Assembly: GCF_003334405.1 (NCBI RefSeq)
Contig: NZ_QOWM01000005.1
Source of the DNA: Escherichia coli
Lineage (GTDB): Bacteria; Pseudomonadota; Gammaproteobacteria; Enterobacterales; Enterobacteriaceae
Length of the DNA stretch: 64,000 nt
Strand: one strand, 5' to 3'
Positions 1,386-41,875 of this stretch are shown here, piece after piece. Below the pieces are notes generated by a model that saw nothing but the letters and a program-made list of their open reading frames with translations, was not told where the DNA came from and searched no databases. Both the position numbers and the translations under genes were made by a program. Within the stretch, counting starts at the first letter, position 1. Each line of letters opens with the position of its first letter.

Positions 1386-3302
1386 TTATTTTTTGTCTTT
1401 GACTTCTTCAAATTCAGCGTCGACAACATCGTCATCTTTCGCGTTGTTTGCAGAAGCATCAGCACCGGCAGTCTGCTGCTGGGCATGTTGCTGCTGGGCG
1501 ATTTCCATCAGTTTCTGGGAAACCTGTGCCAGTTCCTGCATTTTCGCTTCGATAGCGGCTTTGTCTTCACCTTTCAGAGCAGTTTCCAGTGCAGTCAGCG
1601 CAGACTCGATAGCAGTTTTGTCGTCAGCCGGCAGTTTGTCGCCTGCTTCTTCAACCTGCTTACGGGTGCTGTGCAGCAGATGGTCGCCCTGGTTGCGAGT
1701 CTGTACCAGCTCTTCAAACTTACGATCAGCTTCGGCGTTAGCTTCTGCGTCGCGTACCATTTTCTGGATTTCATCTTCGTTCAGACCAGAAGAAGCCTTG
1801 ATGGTGATCTTCTGCTCTTTACCGCTGTTTTTATCTTTCGCGGAAACGTGCAGGATACCGTCAGCATCGATATCGAAGGTAACTTCGATCTGCGGCATGC
1901 CGCGCGGTGCCGGGTTGATACCATCCAGGTTGAACTGACCCAGAGATTTGTTATCAGCCGCACGTTTACGTTCACCCTGCAGCACATGGATGGTTACCGC
2001 AGACTGGTTGTCTTCAGCGGTAGAGAACACCTGGCTGTGCTTGGTCGGGATAGTGGTGTTTTTCGCGATCAGCGTCGTCATCACACCGCCCATGGTTTCG
2101 ATACCCAGAGACAGCGGGGTAACGTCCAGCAGCAGTACGTCTTTTACGTCACCAGTCAAAACACCACCCTGAACAGCAGCACCGATTGCTACAGCTTCGT
2201 CCGGGTTAACGTCTTTACGCGGCTCTTTACCAAAGAACTCAGCAACTTTCTTCTGAACCATTGGCATACGAGTCTGACCACCAACGAGGATAACGTCGTC
2301 GATATCAGATACGGACAGGCCAGCGTCCTGCAGTGCAACTTTCAGCGGCTCAATGGAACGGTTTACCAGATCTTCAACCAGGCTTTCCAGTTTCGCACGA
2401 GTCACTTTGATGTTCATGTGTTTCGGACCGGTCGCGTCTGCAGTGATGTATGGCAGGTTAACGTCGGTCTGCTGAGCGGAAGACAGTTCGATTTTCGCTT
2501 TTTCTGCCGCTTCTTTCAGGCGCTGCATTGCCAGCGGATCGTTGCGCAGGTCAATGCCCTGATCTTTCTTGAATTCTTCAACCAGATAGTTGATCAGACG
2601 GCTGTCGAAGTCTTCACCCCCCAGGTGGGTATCACCGTTGGTTGCCAGAACTTCGAAGGTTTTTTCGCCGTCAACTTCGTCGATTTCGATAATAGAAATA
2701 TCGAAAGTACCACCACCCAGGTCATAAACCGCGATAGTACGGTTGCCAGTGCCTTTGTCCAGACCGTAAGCCAGCGCAGCTGCGGTCGGTTCGTTGATGA
2801 TACGTTTTACTTCCAGACCAGCGATACGGCCTGCGTCTTTGGTTGCCTGACGCTGAGCATCGTTAAAGTATGCCGGTACGGTGATAACAGCTTCAGTTAC
2901 CGGTTCACCCAGGTAATCTTCAGCGGTTTTCTTCATTTTTTTCAGCACTTCAGCAGAAATCTGCGGCGGTGCCATTTTCTGGCCTTTAACTTCGACCCAT
3001 GCGTCGCCGTTATCAGCAGCAATAATTTTGAACGGCATGATGGAAACATCACGCTGTACTTCTTCGTCCTGGAAGCGGCGGCCAATCAGGCGTTTAATCG
3101 CAAACAGGGTGTTTTGCGGGTTCGTCACTGCCTGACGTTTAGCCGGCTGACCAACCAGAGTTTCACCATCCTGGGTATAGGCAATGATAGAAGGCGTGGT
3201 GCGATCGCCTTCGGCGTTCTCCAGCACACGAGGAGTGGTGCCATCCATAATCGCTACACAAGAGTTGGTAGTACCCAGGTCGATACCAATTATTTTACCC
3301 AT
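1386..3302 (-). CDS. dnaK: Chaperone DnaK (Hsp70), 638 aa
   Basis: Translation begins [17 protein letters not shown] and carries Hsp70 signatures throughout. Confidence 0.97.
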
Positions 3303-3422
3303 CTAAACGTCTCCACTATATATTCGGTCATCATGTGGTTGTGAGTCTGTAATAGGGGCGAAACGTCTGGTTTCAACTGCCCAATTTCATTTTTTTGCAG
3401 ACTCACTCACTGCGGTTGACTA

Positions 3423-3460
3423 CTAAATGGGGTCGTAACCCACGTCATCAAGGGGGAGAT
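3423..3460 (-). promoter_or_regulatory. Putative sigma32 heat-shock promoter of dnaK (-35 CCCTTGATG, -10 CCCCATTTA on minus strand)
   Basis: Minus-strand sequence tctcccccttgatgacgtgggttacgaccccatttag matches the sigma32 consensus and lies about 120-160 bp upstream of the dnaK start. Confidence 0.55.
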
Positions 3461-3678
3461 GCAAAAATTTTTTGTGCTTTTGCGCAGAAATTTCGCGATA
3501 TGGCAGGACAAGACGTAAAATTGACAGCAATTTTATTCATATAAAGAATGAATCGCAGCCAAGGCATTCATCAAAAAATTGTAATAAAAAGAAAAGATTA
3601 CGTGCCTGAATCTTCTCTTTATCAGCAGTAAACTAGTGGGTATTCATCCCCCTACCTCTTCCCACTAAGAGAATCCTT

Positions 3679-4083
3679 ATGAAATCCGTTTTTACGATTT
3701 CCGCCAGCCTGGCGATTAGCCTGATGCTGTGCTGCACGGCGCAGGCAAACGACCATAAACTCCTCGGCGCCATTGCAATGCCGCGTAACGAAACCAACGA
3801 TCTGGCGCTGAAACTTCCTGTTTGTCGCATTGTGAAACGCATACAACTCTCTGCCGACCATGGCGATTTACAGTTAAGCGGTGCATCGGTTTATTTCAAA
3901 GCCGCCCGTAGCGCCAGTCAGAGCCTGAATATTCCTTCAGAAATAAAAGAAGGGCAAACCACTGACTGGATCAACATTAACAGCGATAACGACAATAAAC
4001 GCTGCGTCTCAAAAATCACCTTTTCGGGTCATACGGTGAACTCATCGGATATGGCCACGCTGAAAATTATCGGCGACGACTAA
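3679..4083 (+). CDS. yaaI: Conserved protein of unknown function (DUF2541) with N-terminal signal peptide, 134 aa
   Basis: ORF track translation; hydrophobic N-terminus [23 protein letters not shown]; position next to dnaK. Confidence 0.85.
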
Positions 4084-4108
4084 CGCCAGAATATAGAAGC
4101 CACAAAAA

Positions 4109-4822
4109 ATGAATGTTAATTACCTGAATGATTCAGATCTGGATTTTCTTCAGCATTGTAGTGAGGAACAGTTGGCAAATTTCGCCCGATTGCTCACCCA
4201 TAATGAAAAAGGCAAAACTCGCCTCTCCAGCGTCCTGATGCGCAACGAACTGTTTAAATCGATGGAAGGGCATCCCGAGCAACATCGCCGCAACTGGCAG
4301 CTGATTGCCGGAGAATTACAGCATTTTGGTGGCGATAGTATCGCCAACAAACTGCGCGGACACGGTAAATTGTATCGGGCCATTTTGCTCGATGTTTCAA
4401 AGCGATTGAAGCTGAAAGCCGACAAAGAGATGTCTACGTTTGAAATTGAGCAACAGTTACTGGAACAATTTCTGCGTAATACCTGGAAGAAAATGGACGA
4501 GGAACATAAGCAGGAGTTTCTGCACGCGGTCGATGCCAGGGTGAATGAGCTGGAAGAGCTGCTGCCGCTGCTGATGAAAGACAAATTATTGGCAAAAGGT
4601 GTGTCGCATTTGCTTTCCAGCCAACTGACCCGCATTTTACGCACCCACGCAGCAATGAGCGTACTTGAGCATGGTTTGCTGCGCGGCGCGGGGCTGGGAG
4701 GCCCTGTAGGTGCGGCACTAAATGGGGTTAAAGCGGTCAGCGGCAGCGCCTATCGCGTGACGATTCCAGCCGTACTGCAAATCGCCTGCCTGCGCCGGAT
4801 GGTTAGCGCCACTCAGGTCTGA
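4109..4822 (+). CDS. yaaW: Conserved protein of unknown function (DUF3944), 237 aa
   Basis: ORF track translation and position between yaaI and satP. Confidence 0.85.
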   Translation: MNVNYLNDSDLDFLQHCSEEQLANFARLLTHNEKGKTRLSSVLMRNELFKSMEGHPEQHRRNWQLIAGELQHFGGDSIANKLRGHGKLYRAILLDVSKRLKLKADKEMSTFEIEQQLLEQFLRNTWKKMDEEHKQEFLHAVDARVNELEELLPLLMKDKLLAKGVSHLLSSQLTRILRTHAAMSVLEHGLLRGAGLGGPVGAALNGVKAVSGSAYRVTIPAVLQIACLRRMVSATQV

Positions 4823-37941: not shown

Positions 37942-38721
37942 TTAGTAGCTGCTGGCGCTCTTACCGTCGCCGTGGCCCAGCGCTTTCAGCAGGCTTGCCA
38001 GCAGGCTGGAAGCACCAAAGCGGTAGTGACGCGCATCAGCCCAGTCAGCACCGAACAGTTCATCTGCGATGGCGAGATATTTCTGCGCATCTTCCGCAGT
38101 ACGCACGCCGCCCGCCGGTTTGAAACCAACGGTTTTTTCTACGCCCATATCACGGATCACTTCCATCATGATGCGCGCGCTTTCCGGCGTCGCGTTCACA
38201 GCCACTTTACCGGTAGAGGTTTTGATGAAGTCCGCACCCGCTTTGATGGAGATTTCAGACGCTTTACGGATCAGCGCTTCGTCTTTCAGTTCGCCGGTTT
38301 CGATGATCACTTTCAGCAGTACATTCGCTGCCGCGCAAGCCTCTTTACAGGCTTTCACCAGGTCAAAACCAACCTGCTCGTTACCCGCCATCAGCGCGCG
38401 GTACGGGAACACAACGTCAACTTCATCTGCACCGTAGGCGATTGCCGCACGGGTTTCTGCCAGCGCGATTTCGATGTCATCGTTACCGTGTGGGAAGTTG
38501 GTTACCGTAGCGATTCGGATTTCCGGGGTGCCCTGCTCTTTCAGCGTTTTGCGAGCAATCGGGATAAAGCGAGGATAGATACAGATAGCGGCGGTATTGC
38601 CGACCGGAGTTTTGGCCTGATGACACAGAGCAATTACTTTCTCGTCGGTGTCGTCGTCATTCAGGGTGGTCAGGTCCATCAATTTCAGTGCACGCAGGCT
38701 GCTTGCTTTCAGATCAGTCAT
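37942..38721 (-). CDS. deoC: Deoxyribose-phosphate aldolase DeoC; start moved to [26 protein letters not shown]..., 259 aa
   Basis: ORF track 37942..38745 translation; first gene of the deoCABD operon. Confidence 0.96.
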
Positions 38722-38765
38722 TTCATTCTCCTGGCTTGTCGCCAATAAAATTCACCTTGCGAGTT

Positions 38766-38781
38766 TGTTAGTATTCTAACA
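38766..38781. promoter_or_regulatory. DeoR operator-like palindrome TGTTAGTATTCTAACA at the deoC-proximal promoter (O2 by my numbering)
   Basis: Near-perfect 16-bp palindrome 45 bp upstream of the deoC start; matches the DeoR operator consensus TGTTAGAA.TTCTAACA. Flanking CRP-like TGTGA/TCACA half-sites are visible in 38800-38900. Confidence 0.7.
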
Positions 38782-38979
38782 TCTACTCCGCAACACACTT
38801 CGATATACATCACAATTAAGGAAATCTACTTACAAGTTTGCATCACTGTAATGCGATCTGGTTCAAATAATTCACTTTCAAATGAATGCGTCAGTGGTGG
38901 CAAACGCATCAGGATCAAAGTGAACATCACGAAACTTCTTACAATGGCGCATCACCTTCGGCATAAAAAGGAACAGAAG

Positions 38980-40530
38980 ATGTCCACTTCTCATGAAAAT
39001 GCACTGCAACAACGTTGCCAGCAAATTGTCACCAGCCCAGTGCTTAGCCCGGAGCAGAAGCGCCATTTTCTGGCACTGGAAGCAGAAAACAATCTGCCTT
39101 ACCCACAGCTGCCTGCCGAAGCCCGCCGCGCGCTGGATGAAGGTGTAATCTGCGATATGTTTGAAGGTCATGCGCCGTACAAACCGCGCTATGTCTTACC
39201 CGATTACGCCCGTTTTCTGGCGAACGGTTCCGAATGGCTGGAGCTGGAAGGCGCGAAAGATCTTGATGACGCACTCTCTCTGCTGACCATTCTTTACCAC
39301 CACGTACCGTCGGTCACATCGATGCCGGTCTACCTGGGGCAACTGGATGCGTTGTTGCAACCGTATGTTAGAATTCTAACACAAGACGAGATCGATATTC
39401 GAATAAAACGTTTCTGGCGTTACCTCGACAGAACCCTGCCAGACGCCTTTATGCACGCCAATATCGGCCCGTCTGATTCGCCCATTACCCGTGCAATCTT
39501 ACGTGCAGACGCAGAGTTGAAGCAGGTTTCACCGAACCTGACCTTTATCTACGATCCTGAAATCACCCCTGATGACCTACTGCTGGAAGTGGCGAAGAAC
39601 ATCTGTGAATGTAGCAAACCGCACATCGCCAACGGTCCGGTGCATGATAAAATTTTCACAAAAGGGGGCTACGGGATTGTGAGCTGTTACAACTCACTGC
39701 CGCTGGCGGGTGGTGGCAGCACGCTGGTACGCCTTAACCTGAAAGCCATTGCCGAGCGCAGCGAATCGCTGGATGACTTCTTTACGCGCACTCTACCGCA
39801 CTACTGCCAGCAGCAGATCGCCATCATCGATGCGCGGTGTGAATTCCTCTATCAACAATCACACTTCTTTGAGAATAGCTTCCTGGTGAAAGAAGGGCTG
39901 ATTAACCCTGAACGTTTTGTGCCAATGTTTGGCATGTATGGGCTGGCGGAAGCGGTTAACTTGCTGTGTGAGAAAGAAGGGATTGCCGCGCGCTACGGTA
40001 AAGAAGCCGCCGCAAATGAAGTGGGTTATCGCATCAGCGCGCAACTGGCGGAGTTTGTCGCCAATACCCCCGTGAAATATGGCTGGCAAAAACGCGCCAT
40101 GTTACACGCACAGTCGGGGATCAGTTCCGATATCGGCACCACGCCGGGCGCGCGTTTACCCTATGGCGATGAGCCAGATCCGATCACCCATCTGCAAACT
40201 GTCGCCCCGCATCATGCTTATTATTATTCCGGCATCAGCGACATTCTGACGCTCGACGAAACCATCAAACGTAATCCGCAGGCGCTGGTACAGCTTTGCC
40301 TCGGTGCCTTTAAAGCCGGAATGCGTGAATTTACCGCCAATGTCAGCGGTAACGATCTGGTTCGCGTTACCGGTTATATGGTGCGTTTGTCGGATTTAGA
40401 AAAATATCGCGCCGAAGGTTCACGCACCAACACCACCTGGCTGGGCGAAGAAGCCGCACGCAACACTCGTATTCTGGAACGCCAGCCGCGCGTGATAAGC
40501 CATGAACAGCAGATGCGCTTTAGTCAGTAA
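38980..40530 (+). CDS. yjjI: Putative glycyl-radical enzyme (PFL-like), uncharacterised substrate; start at [13 protein letters not shown]..., 516 aa
   Basis: ORF track 38851..40530; good SD (aaaggaacagaag) before the ATG at 38980; C-terminal RVTGY glycyl-radical fingerprint encoded at about 40362-40376. Confidence 0.88.
39366..39381. promoter_or_regulatory. DeoR operator-like perfect palindrome TGTTAGAATTCTAACA, exactly 600 bp from the 38766 site, inside yjjI coding sequence
   Basis: Perfect 16-bp palindrome read directly; the spacing fits the known multi-operator DeoR looping arrangement as I recall it. Confidence 0.65.
39645..39660. promoter_or_regulatory. Third, weaker DeoR operator-like palindrome TGATAAAATTTTCACA, 279 bp beyond the 39366 site
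   Basis: Imperfect palindrome with operator-like half-sites; spacing fits the known upstream operator OE as I recall it. Confidence 0.45.
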
Positions 40531-41365
40531 GATTATCCCCTTCTCCTGCGTTGACGGGCCAGGCAGTCGTCTGGCTCTGTTTTTGCAGGGCTGCAATCTG
40601 CGCTGCAAAAACTGTCACAATCCGTGGACGATGGGGCGCTGTAATCATTGCGGAGAGTGCGTGCCACAGTGTCCGCATCAGGCGTTGCAGATTGTTGACG
40701 GCAAAGTGGTGTGGAACGCTGCGGTCTGCGAGCAGTGTGATACCTGCCTGAAGAGGTGTCCGCAACATGCCACGCCGATGGCGCAATCCATGAGCGTGGA
40801 CGAAGTGCTTAGCCATGTCCGCAAAGCGGTGCTGTTTATTGAAGGGATAACGGTAAGCGGCGGCGAAGCCACGACCCAACTGCCGTTTGTAGTGGCGCTG
40901 TTTACTGCTATCAAAAACGATCCGCAACTGCGCCATCTCACCTGTCTGGTGGACAGTAACGGCATGTTGAGCGAAACCGGCTGGGAAAAATTACTCCCGG
41001 TGTGTGACGGCGCAATGCTCGATCTCAAAGCATGGGGTAGCGAATGTCATCAACAATTAACCGGACGCGATAATCAGCAGATTAAGCGCAGCATCTGTTT
41101 GCTGGCAGAGCGCGGCAAGCTGGCGGAACTGCGTTTGCTGGTAATCCCTGGCCAGGTGGATTATTTGCAACACATCGAAGAACTGGCGGCGTTTATCAAG
41201 GGACTTGGCGATGTTCCGGTACGCCTGAACGCGTTTCATGCCCACGGCGTGTATGGCGAGGCGCAAAGCTGGGCGAGCGCCACGCCGGAAGACGTTGAGC
41301 CGTTGGCTGATGCATTAAAGGTGCGCGGGGTGGGCCGGTTGATATTTCCGGCGCTGTATTTGTGA
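40502..41365 (+). CDS. yjjW: Glycyl-radical enzyme activating protein (radical SAM) with two ferredoxin-type 4Fe-4S cysteine clusters, 287 aa
   Basis: Translation has the radical-SAM CxxxCxxC motif (CNLRCKNC) and two CxxCxxCxxxCP clusters ([24 protein letters not shown]); overlaps the yjjI 3' end by 29 nt. Confidence 0.9.
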
Positions 41366-41367
41366 CA

Positions 41368-41875
<508 letters not shown>

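Follow-up and report, generated by a model that had tools for sequence, protein, structure and literature searches.

The classical DeoR operator triad of deoCABD overlaps the coding sequence of the divergent glycyl-radical enzyme gene yjjI

The window analysed here is a stretch of 64,000 nucleotides of Escherichia coli DNA (RefSeq assembly GCF_003334405.1, contig NZ_QOWM01000005.1). It carries deoC, the first gene of the deoCABD operon, and the divergently oriented gene yjjI, with the two start codons separated by 258 bp. Three palindromic sites for the repressor DeoR are found here, two of them inside the yjjI reading frame. They are very probably the classical operators O2, O1 and OE of deoCABD, with O1 (together with the promoter deoP1) and OE lying within yjjI, where they override codon choice. 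The genes of the locus are:

37942–38721, minus strand: deoC, first gene of deoCABD, with its ATG at 38721 (open reading frame list; TIGR00126 match, E = 3e-88; RefSeq annotation of matching E. coli genomes)
38980–40530, plus strand: yjjI, encoding a YjjI-family glycyl-radical enzyme, 516 codons, with its ATG at 38980 (open reading frame list; TIGR04040)
40502–41365, plus strand: yjjW, encoding a glycyl-radical activase (open reading frame list; TIGR04041 match, 398 bits)

Of 5,426 complete E. coli genomes, 5,424 match the region and carry the annotations yjjI and deoC there; the K-12 counterpart of the region is b4380/b4381. The 5' end of yjjW overlaps the 3' end of yjjI by 29 nt. The yjjI product matches the NCBIfam family TIGR04040 (YjjI family glycine radical enzyme) with 788 bits over residues 11–504, alignments of YjjI orthologs from 80 species begin at residue 1 or nearly so, and the N-terminal motifs are retained down to 65% identity. 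A search found 295 YjjI-encoding genomes. Judged by these alignments, the yjjI frame is genuinely coding at O1 and OE, and the N-terminal end of its product is genuine and shared within the YjjI family. An earlier note on this DNA had placed O1 with deoP1 and OE inside the yjjI frame. The TIGR04040 coverage from residue 11 and the ortholog alignments from residue 1 bear this out and exclude a true yjjI start downstream of 39660. The three operators are:

38766–38781, minus strand: DeoR operator O2, TGTTAGTATTCTAACA (minus-strand reading TGTTAGAATACTAACA), matching the palindrome at 15 of 16 positions
39366–39381, minus strand: DeoR operator O1, TGTTAGAATTCTAACA, a perfect palindrome (16 of 16), at yjjI codons 129–134 (taT GTT AGA ATT CTA ACA)
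39645–39660, no strand assigned: DeoR operator OE, TGATAAAATTTTCACA, 12 of 16 positions, at yjjI codons 222–227 (caT GAT AAA ATT TTC ACA)

Measured from start to start, O2 and O1 are 600 bp apart and O1 and OE are 279 bp apart, with OE upstream of O1 in the deo direction; the positions, spacings and perfect O1 palindrome are thus as the earlier note had reported them. A scan of the window for palindromes with at most three mismatches returns exactly O2 and O1, with 0.18 sites expected by chance and two or more sites in none of 100 shuffled sequences. All three 16-mers are identical to those of K-12, where they occupy 4616385–400 (OE), 4616664–679 (O1) and 4617263–278 (O2), at distances of 279 and 599 bp. 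Over the surrounding kilobase, nine substitutions and a single additional A (at 38965) distinguish the window from K-12, and the operators are free of these changes. The insertion lies in a run of A just ahead of the yjjI Shine-Dalgarno sequence and accounts for the O1–O2 distance of 600 bp here as opposed to 599 bp in K-12. The K-12 deoCABD regulatory region is reportedly treated by Dandanell & Hammer 1985, Valentin-Hansen et al. 1986, Dandanell et al. 1987 and Amouyal et al. 1989.

The sequences of O1 and O2 agree with the published DeoR palindromes TGTTAGAA-TACTAACA and TGTTAGAA-TTCTAACA, which belong to “three genetically separated operator elements” (PMC5326754). The published layout is the same: a distance of 599 bp separates deoP1 from deoP2, which a single DeoR loop locks (PMC3334521), and O1 and O2, about 600 bp apart, lie at tandem promoters with OE about 300 bp further upstream (PMC8053113). 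Loops between all operator sites have been seen by electron microscopy, and O1–O2 looping in vivo has been estimated at about 72% (PMC8053113). That DeoR binds and loops this DNA and is relieved by deoxyribose-5-phosphate is known from the literature (PMC5326754, PMC8053113). The earlier note’s identification of the sites as the DeoR looping triad is therefore correct on both counts, identity to K-12 and published spacing. The triad is the canonical deo system itself, not a mere lookalike, and as such a feature that was already known.

The promoter elements of the deo side coincide with O2 and O1, in both of which an extended −10 box, TGtTAGAAT, is found on the deoC strand:

38778–38773, minus strand: −10 hexamer of deoP2, inside O2, with a transcription start near 38766 as judged from the −10 box and the CRP sites
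39378–39373, minus strand: −10 box TAGAAT of deoP1, inside O1, with a probable transcription start near 39366 by the same geometry
38799–38814 (centre 38806.5), no strand assigned: deoP2 CRP site 1 (TTCGATATACATCACA), two mismatches to the CRP core, conserved in a 16-species alignment
38852–38867 (centre 38859.5), no strand assigned: deoP2 CRP site 2 (TGCGATCTGGTTCAAA), two mismatches to the CRP core, partly conserved
39391–39420, minus strand: conserved block at yjjI codons 138–147, from its position probably the −35/UP-element region of deoP1

Counted from the probable deoP2 start, the CRP sites have their centres at −40.5 and −93.5, as is usual for deoP2; the assignment of the second site follows the deoP2 literature. 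The CytR region lies between them. The sequence of CRP site 1 has been reported under a CRP peak found by chromatin immunoprecipitation sequencing (ChIP-seq) in enterotoxigenic E. coli (ETEC).

The embedded sites leave a strong mark on yjjI. The codon alignment comprised 74 loci, of which 69/70 operator-bearing sequences were kept as non-redundant (below 97% nucleotide identity), and synonymous diversity was taken, per codon, as the frequency with which species that share the amino acid differ in the codon. Its mean over yjjI is 0.446 among 69 Enterobacterales sequences. The lowest two of the 511 six-codon windows are codons 222–227 (39643–39660, 0.005) and codons 129–134 (39364–39381, 0.025), and they coincide, within 2 nt, with OE and O1. 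The top three non-overlapping conserved 16-mers of the gene are 39404–39419, 39645–39660 (exactly OE) and 39366–39381 (exactly O1). In the codon alignment TAT GTT AGA ATT CTA ACA CAA and GAT AAA ATT TTC ACA AAA are fixed and the flanking codons vary freely. With the O1/deoP1 and OE blocks pooled, synonymous diversity is 0.109 versus 0.470 in the remaining gene (p = 1e-12). Six of the eleven rare codons of yjjI (AGA, CGA, ATA, CTA, ACA) fall within the 26 codons of these blocks (p = 3.5e-6).

The block at 39391–39420 shares these properties. Its synonymous diversity is 0.12–0.15, and it contains the rare codons CGA141, the gene’s only CGA, and ATA142, one of the two ATA codons of yjjI. The most conserved 16-mer of all, 39404–39419 (0.989), lies in it, just upstream of the deoP1 −10 box and spacer, and is probably the −35/UP region of deoP1; the block may also hold a further protein site. 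In E. coli the block also carries a 10-bp palindrome, TATTCGAATA (39396–39405), which is only partly conserved elsewhere.

Conservation of this kind could in principle reflect needs of yjjI itself (protein sequence, rare-codon pausing or mRNA structure) at 39366–39381 and 39645–39660. Both stretches do contain rare codons, which are possible translational pause sites, and residues P128, Y129 and F226 are invariant in the YjjI family. Against this, the borders of the conserved stretches are exactly those of 16-bp palindromes matching published DeoR operators, and YjjI residues 131–134 and 223–227 are not conserved in the wider family. Codon 131 is AGA (Arg), AAA (Lys) or GGA (Gly) among species, beside neighbouring nucleotides that remain unchanged, as expected of selection on the DNA and not on the protein. 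Lineages without O2 or without any DeoR-like site, moreover, have free codons at both stretches. We regard an origin of this conservation in yjjI’s own needs as extremely unlikely. The sequence comparison shows instead that the sites are under purifying selection at the DNA level, whatever the coding frame. That operator bases constrain yjjI codons, as the earlier note had it, is strongly supported by the alignment, with the lowest synonymous diversity at OE and O1, fixed codons and clustered rare codons. In the AlphaFold model of YjjI (mean pLDDT, the predicted local distance difference test score, of 78), residues 130–134 and 224–230 are in loops between secondary-structure elements, a placement that, in the model, fits a tolerance of the operator-encoded peptides to change.

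Two further dips in synonymous diversity occur in yjjI. One, at 40498–40527, is explained by the overlap with yjjW at the 3' end of the gene. The other is an island at 39865–39885 (codons 296–302, TTC TTT GAG AAT AGC TTC CTG) with a diversity of 0.093 versus the mean of 0.446 and a 16-nt conservation of 0.947. This fourth island is kept in Enterobacteriaceae and not in Hafnia, Edwardsiella and Proteus. On its left side it is similar to a DeoR half-site (TTTGAGAA vs TGTTAGAA), without a palindrome.

The comparison across species supplies natural controls. Each of the 76 non-Proteus loci has O1 at offset +386 of yjjI, as a perfect palindrome in 54, with a single mismatch in 18 and with two in 4; OE at offset +665 is identical in 64 of the 76 and has at most one mismatch in 75, and O2 (at most four mismatches) is found in 72 of 76 related loci. 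Depending on the species, O1 and O2 lie 567 to 626 bp apart. This spread rules out helical phasing of O1 and O2; the loop is not phase-locked. The OE–O1 distance is constant at 279 bp only because both sites lie within an indel-free reading frame.

Four Proteus loci have neither deoC beside yjjI nor a DeoR-like site, and they encode V-G-[E/N/S]-L-T and D-A-V-F-G at the corresponding positions with free codons. Providencia- and Moellerella-like orthologs have different residues at the operator positions; the Providencia-like ones are without DeoR-like sites and have free codons at both positions. Another locus without DeoR-like sites, L085, likewise has other residues and free codons at both positions. 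In a metagenomic contig (locus L084; logan:SRR31913104_61994, 1817–4551) deoCAB adjoins yjjI–yjjW as in E. coli, yet no DeoR-like operator is found from −700 to +1600 of the yjjI start and both positions hold unrelated sequence, with other residues and free codons. This lineage may regulate deo differently, and it rules out that deoC adjacency alone predicts embedded operators. At the other extreme, two loci whose YjjI is only 66–67% identical to that of E. coli (L082 and L083) carry O2, O1 and OE at −226, +386 and +665. Proteus and L084 on the one side and L082 and L083 on the other thus indicate, from sequence comparison, that the embedded sequence tracks the operator system, and neither the protein nor deoC adjacency alone. 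At codon 131 the more distant operator-bearing lineages (Hafnia, Edwardsiella, L082 and L083) carry GGA, encoding Gly as non-operator lineages do, and their operator matches at 15 of 16 positions; with the AGA of Enterobacteriaceae the palindrome is perfect. On this evidence, an apparent replacement of Gly by Arg or Lys at residue 131 may have been driven by operator optimisation.

OE has competing assignments of its own. Its main role could be in CRP binding, or as the −10 region of a promoter within yjjI on the plus strand. OE is two mismatches away from the CRP core TGTGA-N6-TCACA, and the sole sigma-70-like match in 38650–39750, TCGCCA-16-TAAAAT with an upstream TG on the plus strand (39626–39653), has its −10 box inside OE. 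A CRP ChIP-seq peak has also been found within yjjI in ETEC. This peak lies about 544 bp from the deoP2 peak, however, and so near O1 and not OE. The promoter-like match is at chance level (one found versus 1.2 expected), and its −35 part is not conserved, only the part shared with OE. Genetic and electron microscopy evidence for DeoR action at OE is available in the literature (PMC5326754, PMC8053113). For K-12, classical work reportedly shows both DeoR occupancy of OE and incomplete deo repression once OE is recoded. We therefore consider a primary role as a CRP site or internal promoter very unlikely, and treat OE as a DeoR operator. As for the ETEC peak itself (strain H10407), its distance of 544 bp from the deoP2 CRP peak puts it at about 39350–39380, approximately at O1. 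All three DeoR operators are just two mismatches from the CRP core; the intragenic peak could represent direct CRP binding or cross-linking via the DeoR loop.

Several points weigh against the identification of the triad and of its embedding in yjjI. Taken alone, OE is at chance level, with four sites of at most four mismatches in the window versus 1.8 expected in shuffles; it is backed by identity to K-12 at the published OE position, by the lowest-diversity windows of yjjI and by its rank among the top three conserved 16-mers. The exact published OE coordinates are taken from secondary sources. A simple sigma-70 scan called neither deoP1 nor deoP2, owing to their weak −35 boxes. In L084, deoC and yjjI are adjacent without operators, and the arrangement is therefore not obligatory. 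A literature search returned no DeoR-binding, transcription start site or deoR-mutant expression data for the locus.

On the yjjI side of the intergenic region, conservation in the 16-species alignment comprises, besides O2 and the CRP sites, a putative FNR half-site and a TACAAT/TACACT box:

38905–38918 (centre 38911.5), plus strand: predicted FNR site (CGCATCAGGATCAA), at −41.5 from the predicted transcription start; only the right half-site is conserved
38940–38945, plus strand: predicted −10 box TACAAT (TACAAT/TACACT), with a predicted yjjI transcription start near 38953

The sequence GGATCAAA at 38912–38919 is invariant in this alignment. The TACAAT/TACACT box is mostly invariant among the 16 species and lies at a fixed distance from the FNR half-site, 21 bp downstream. 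These motifs fit a class II FNR promoter of yjjI with a start near 38953. A ChIP-seq study of FNR lists yjjI as directly activated by FNR; its peak lies 93 bp ahead of the ATG, and the entry reads “TSS not known” (PMC3688515). The published peak is about 25 bp from the predicted FNR site.

These elements can be combined into a model of the locus. The present analysis establishes what the sites are, where they lie, that they are embedded in coding sequence and that their nucleotides are conserved; DeoR binding, looping and the promoter status of deoP1 and deoP2 come from the literature. A DeoR multimer would bind O2, O1 and OE and hold them together in single or double DNA loops. Looping would close the tandem promoters deoP2 (at O2) and deoP1 (at O1), the −10 boxes of which are part of the operators. 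Because deoC and yjjI diverge from start codons only 258 bp apart, deoP1/O1 and OE are written into the yjjI frame, deoP1/O1 at codons 129–147 and OE at codons 222–227. At these sites selection on regulatory DNA overrides codon choice and, in part, the choice of amino acids in YjjI. Transcription from deoP1 would begin with a 645-nt leader, of which the stretch between about 38953 and 39366 would be antisense to yjjI mRNA. The predicted yjjI promoter would lie within the O1–O2 loop and would be convergent with deoP1 across about 413 bp, and RNA polymerase transcribing yjjI would have to pass DeoR at O1 and OE.

The earlier note had also proposed that deoP1 transcripts are antisense to the 5' third of yjjI. 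The geometry upholds the antisense orientation, and the extent has to be reduced: with O1 at codons 129–134, the deoP1 leader overlaps roughly the first quarter of the gene (387 of 1551 nt). Two candidate elements in this leader were rejected. A terminator is represented by one weak 5-bp stem (39018–39006), which is at chance level, and the minus-strand reading frames that might form a conserved leader peptide or antisense gene (97, 76 and 54 residues) are open in only 10–11 of 69 species.

Does the overlap regulate yjjI? DeoR looped at O1 and OE might block transcription of yjjI–yjjW, and, once DeoR is released, deoP1 might fire head-on at the FNR-dependent yjjI promoter about 413 bp away. 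The antisense or interference scenario of the earlier note (INTERFERENCE idea) would be geometrically sound: the probable deoP1 start near 39366 on the minus strand faces the predicted yjjI start near 38953 on the plus strand, and the yjjI promoter would be inside the O1–O2 loop. A DeoR roadblock at O1 and OE is an additional possibility, and, on this arrangement of sites, roadblock or collisions with deoP1 transcription appear physically plausible. The direct FNR activation of yjjI (PMC3688515) and the estimated looping of about 72% (PMC8053113) are compatible with such an effect, and looped repressors are described as able to obstruct polymerases transcribing another gene (PMC5477534). The adjacency of deoC and yjjI with embedded operators is, in addition, kept across families, down to 66% YjjI identity.

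Other observations speak against it. The part of yjjI overlapped by the deoP1 leader (codons 6–128) shows no extra synonymous constraint (0.484 vs 0.470, p = 0.45), yjjI occurs without embedded operators in Proteus, L084 and L085, and the conservation of the operators is fully accounted for by deo repression. Induction of yjjI was detected in wild-type (deoR+) cells (PMC3688515), so any roadblock is not absolute. Judged by titles and abstracts, none of the papers searched that mention yjjI or yjjW appears to address deo or DeoR. The literature search gave no transcription start, antisense or deoR-mutant data for yjjI, and the supplements of Ettwiller 2016, Kim 2012 and SMRT-Cappable-seq 2018 (possibly incomplete), searched by gene name and coordinate prefix, gave no match. 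Regulation of yjjI by roadblock and head-on transcription is thus possible, although we lean against it, and functional coupling of deo and yjjI in general is rather doubtful.

One may go further and suppose that the embedding is used and not just tolerated. Roadblock and head-on deoP1 transcription would then make yjjI–yjjW depend on deoxyribonucleoside status and would tie the NrdD-like YjjI to anaerobic (deoxy)nucleoside metabolism. We offer this speculatively and consider it unlikely. A link of YjjI to nucleoside metabolism is hinted at by the long-conserved synteny of yjjIW and deoCABD and by nucleoside-transporter and TatD-family neighbours in distant loci. In L082 and L084, a gene for a NupC-family nucleoside transporter and a TatD-family gene are found beside yjjW.

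A search of 38000–41500 for known RNA families (Rfam) gave no match in the regulatory region. The sole match in this interval is to naRNA4 (RF02564) at 41404–41482, about 40 bp past the yjjW stop codon (74 bits on the minus strand, 54 bits on the plus strand); we read it as an element of the repetitive extragenic palindromic (REP) type.

The operator triad is a founding example of long-range repression by DNA looping, and its rediscovery adds nothing. What the locus offers is an unusually clean natural case of dual coding, in which a promoter and two operators are kept base-exact within a gene over about 70 species, where they force rare codons, and the operator-less lineages serve as built-in controls. 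The overlap of yjjI with the deo operators is implicit in genome annotation. Among the papers searched that mention yjjI, none appears from its title and abstract to address it. To our knowledge, yjjI–yjjW is among the few glycyl-radical enzyme systems of E. coli without a known substrate. Co-ordination of deo and yjjI, if true, would give a functional lead for YjjI, and expression of a glycyl-radical enzyme would then be gated by deoxyribonucleoside availability.

The closest relative of the system described here is the K-12 deoCABD region, which has the same three 16-mers in the same order, the same 279-bp OE–O1 distance and the same deoP2 CRP sites, and differs in the O1–O2 distance and in the nine substitutions outside the operators. 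Auxiliary operators within genes are familiar from lac, where O2 lies inside lacZ and O3 at the end of lacI, and from gal, where OI lies inside galE. These operators likewise serve repression by looping from within coding sequence and satisfy two codes. The lac and gal sites belong to a gene of the regulated operon or to the repressor gene, whereas the deo locus has a complete promoter and two operators in an unrelated divergent gene. Because deoP1 lies inside yjjI, the transcript under DeoR control runs antisense to the gene that hosts its promoter. The inferred arrangement of deoP1 and the predicted yjjI promoter would resemble that of coliphage 186 pR/pL and other face-to-face pairs, in which promoters a few hundred bp apart give overlapping transcripts. 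In systems of the coliphage 186 pR/pL type interference is a measured effect, whereas here the convergent geometry is derived from the inferred starts. Finally, binding sites of E. coli transcription factors mapped within coding sequence by chromatin immunoprecipitation, such as those of PhoB and sigma-54, are also intragenic. Many intragenic sites are reported to be transcriptionally inert (PMC10294691). O1 and OE differ from such sites in that they have a defined role in deo repression and are kept to the base over about 70 species.

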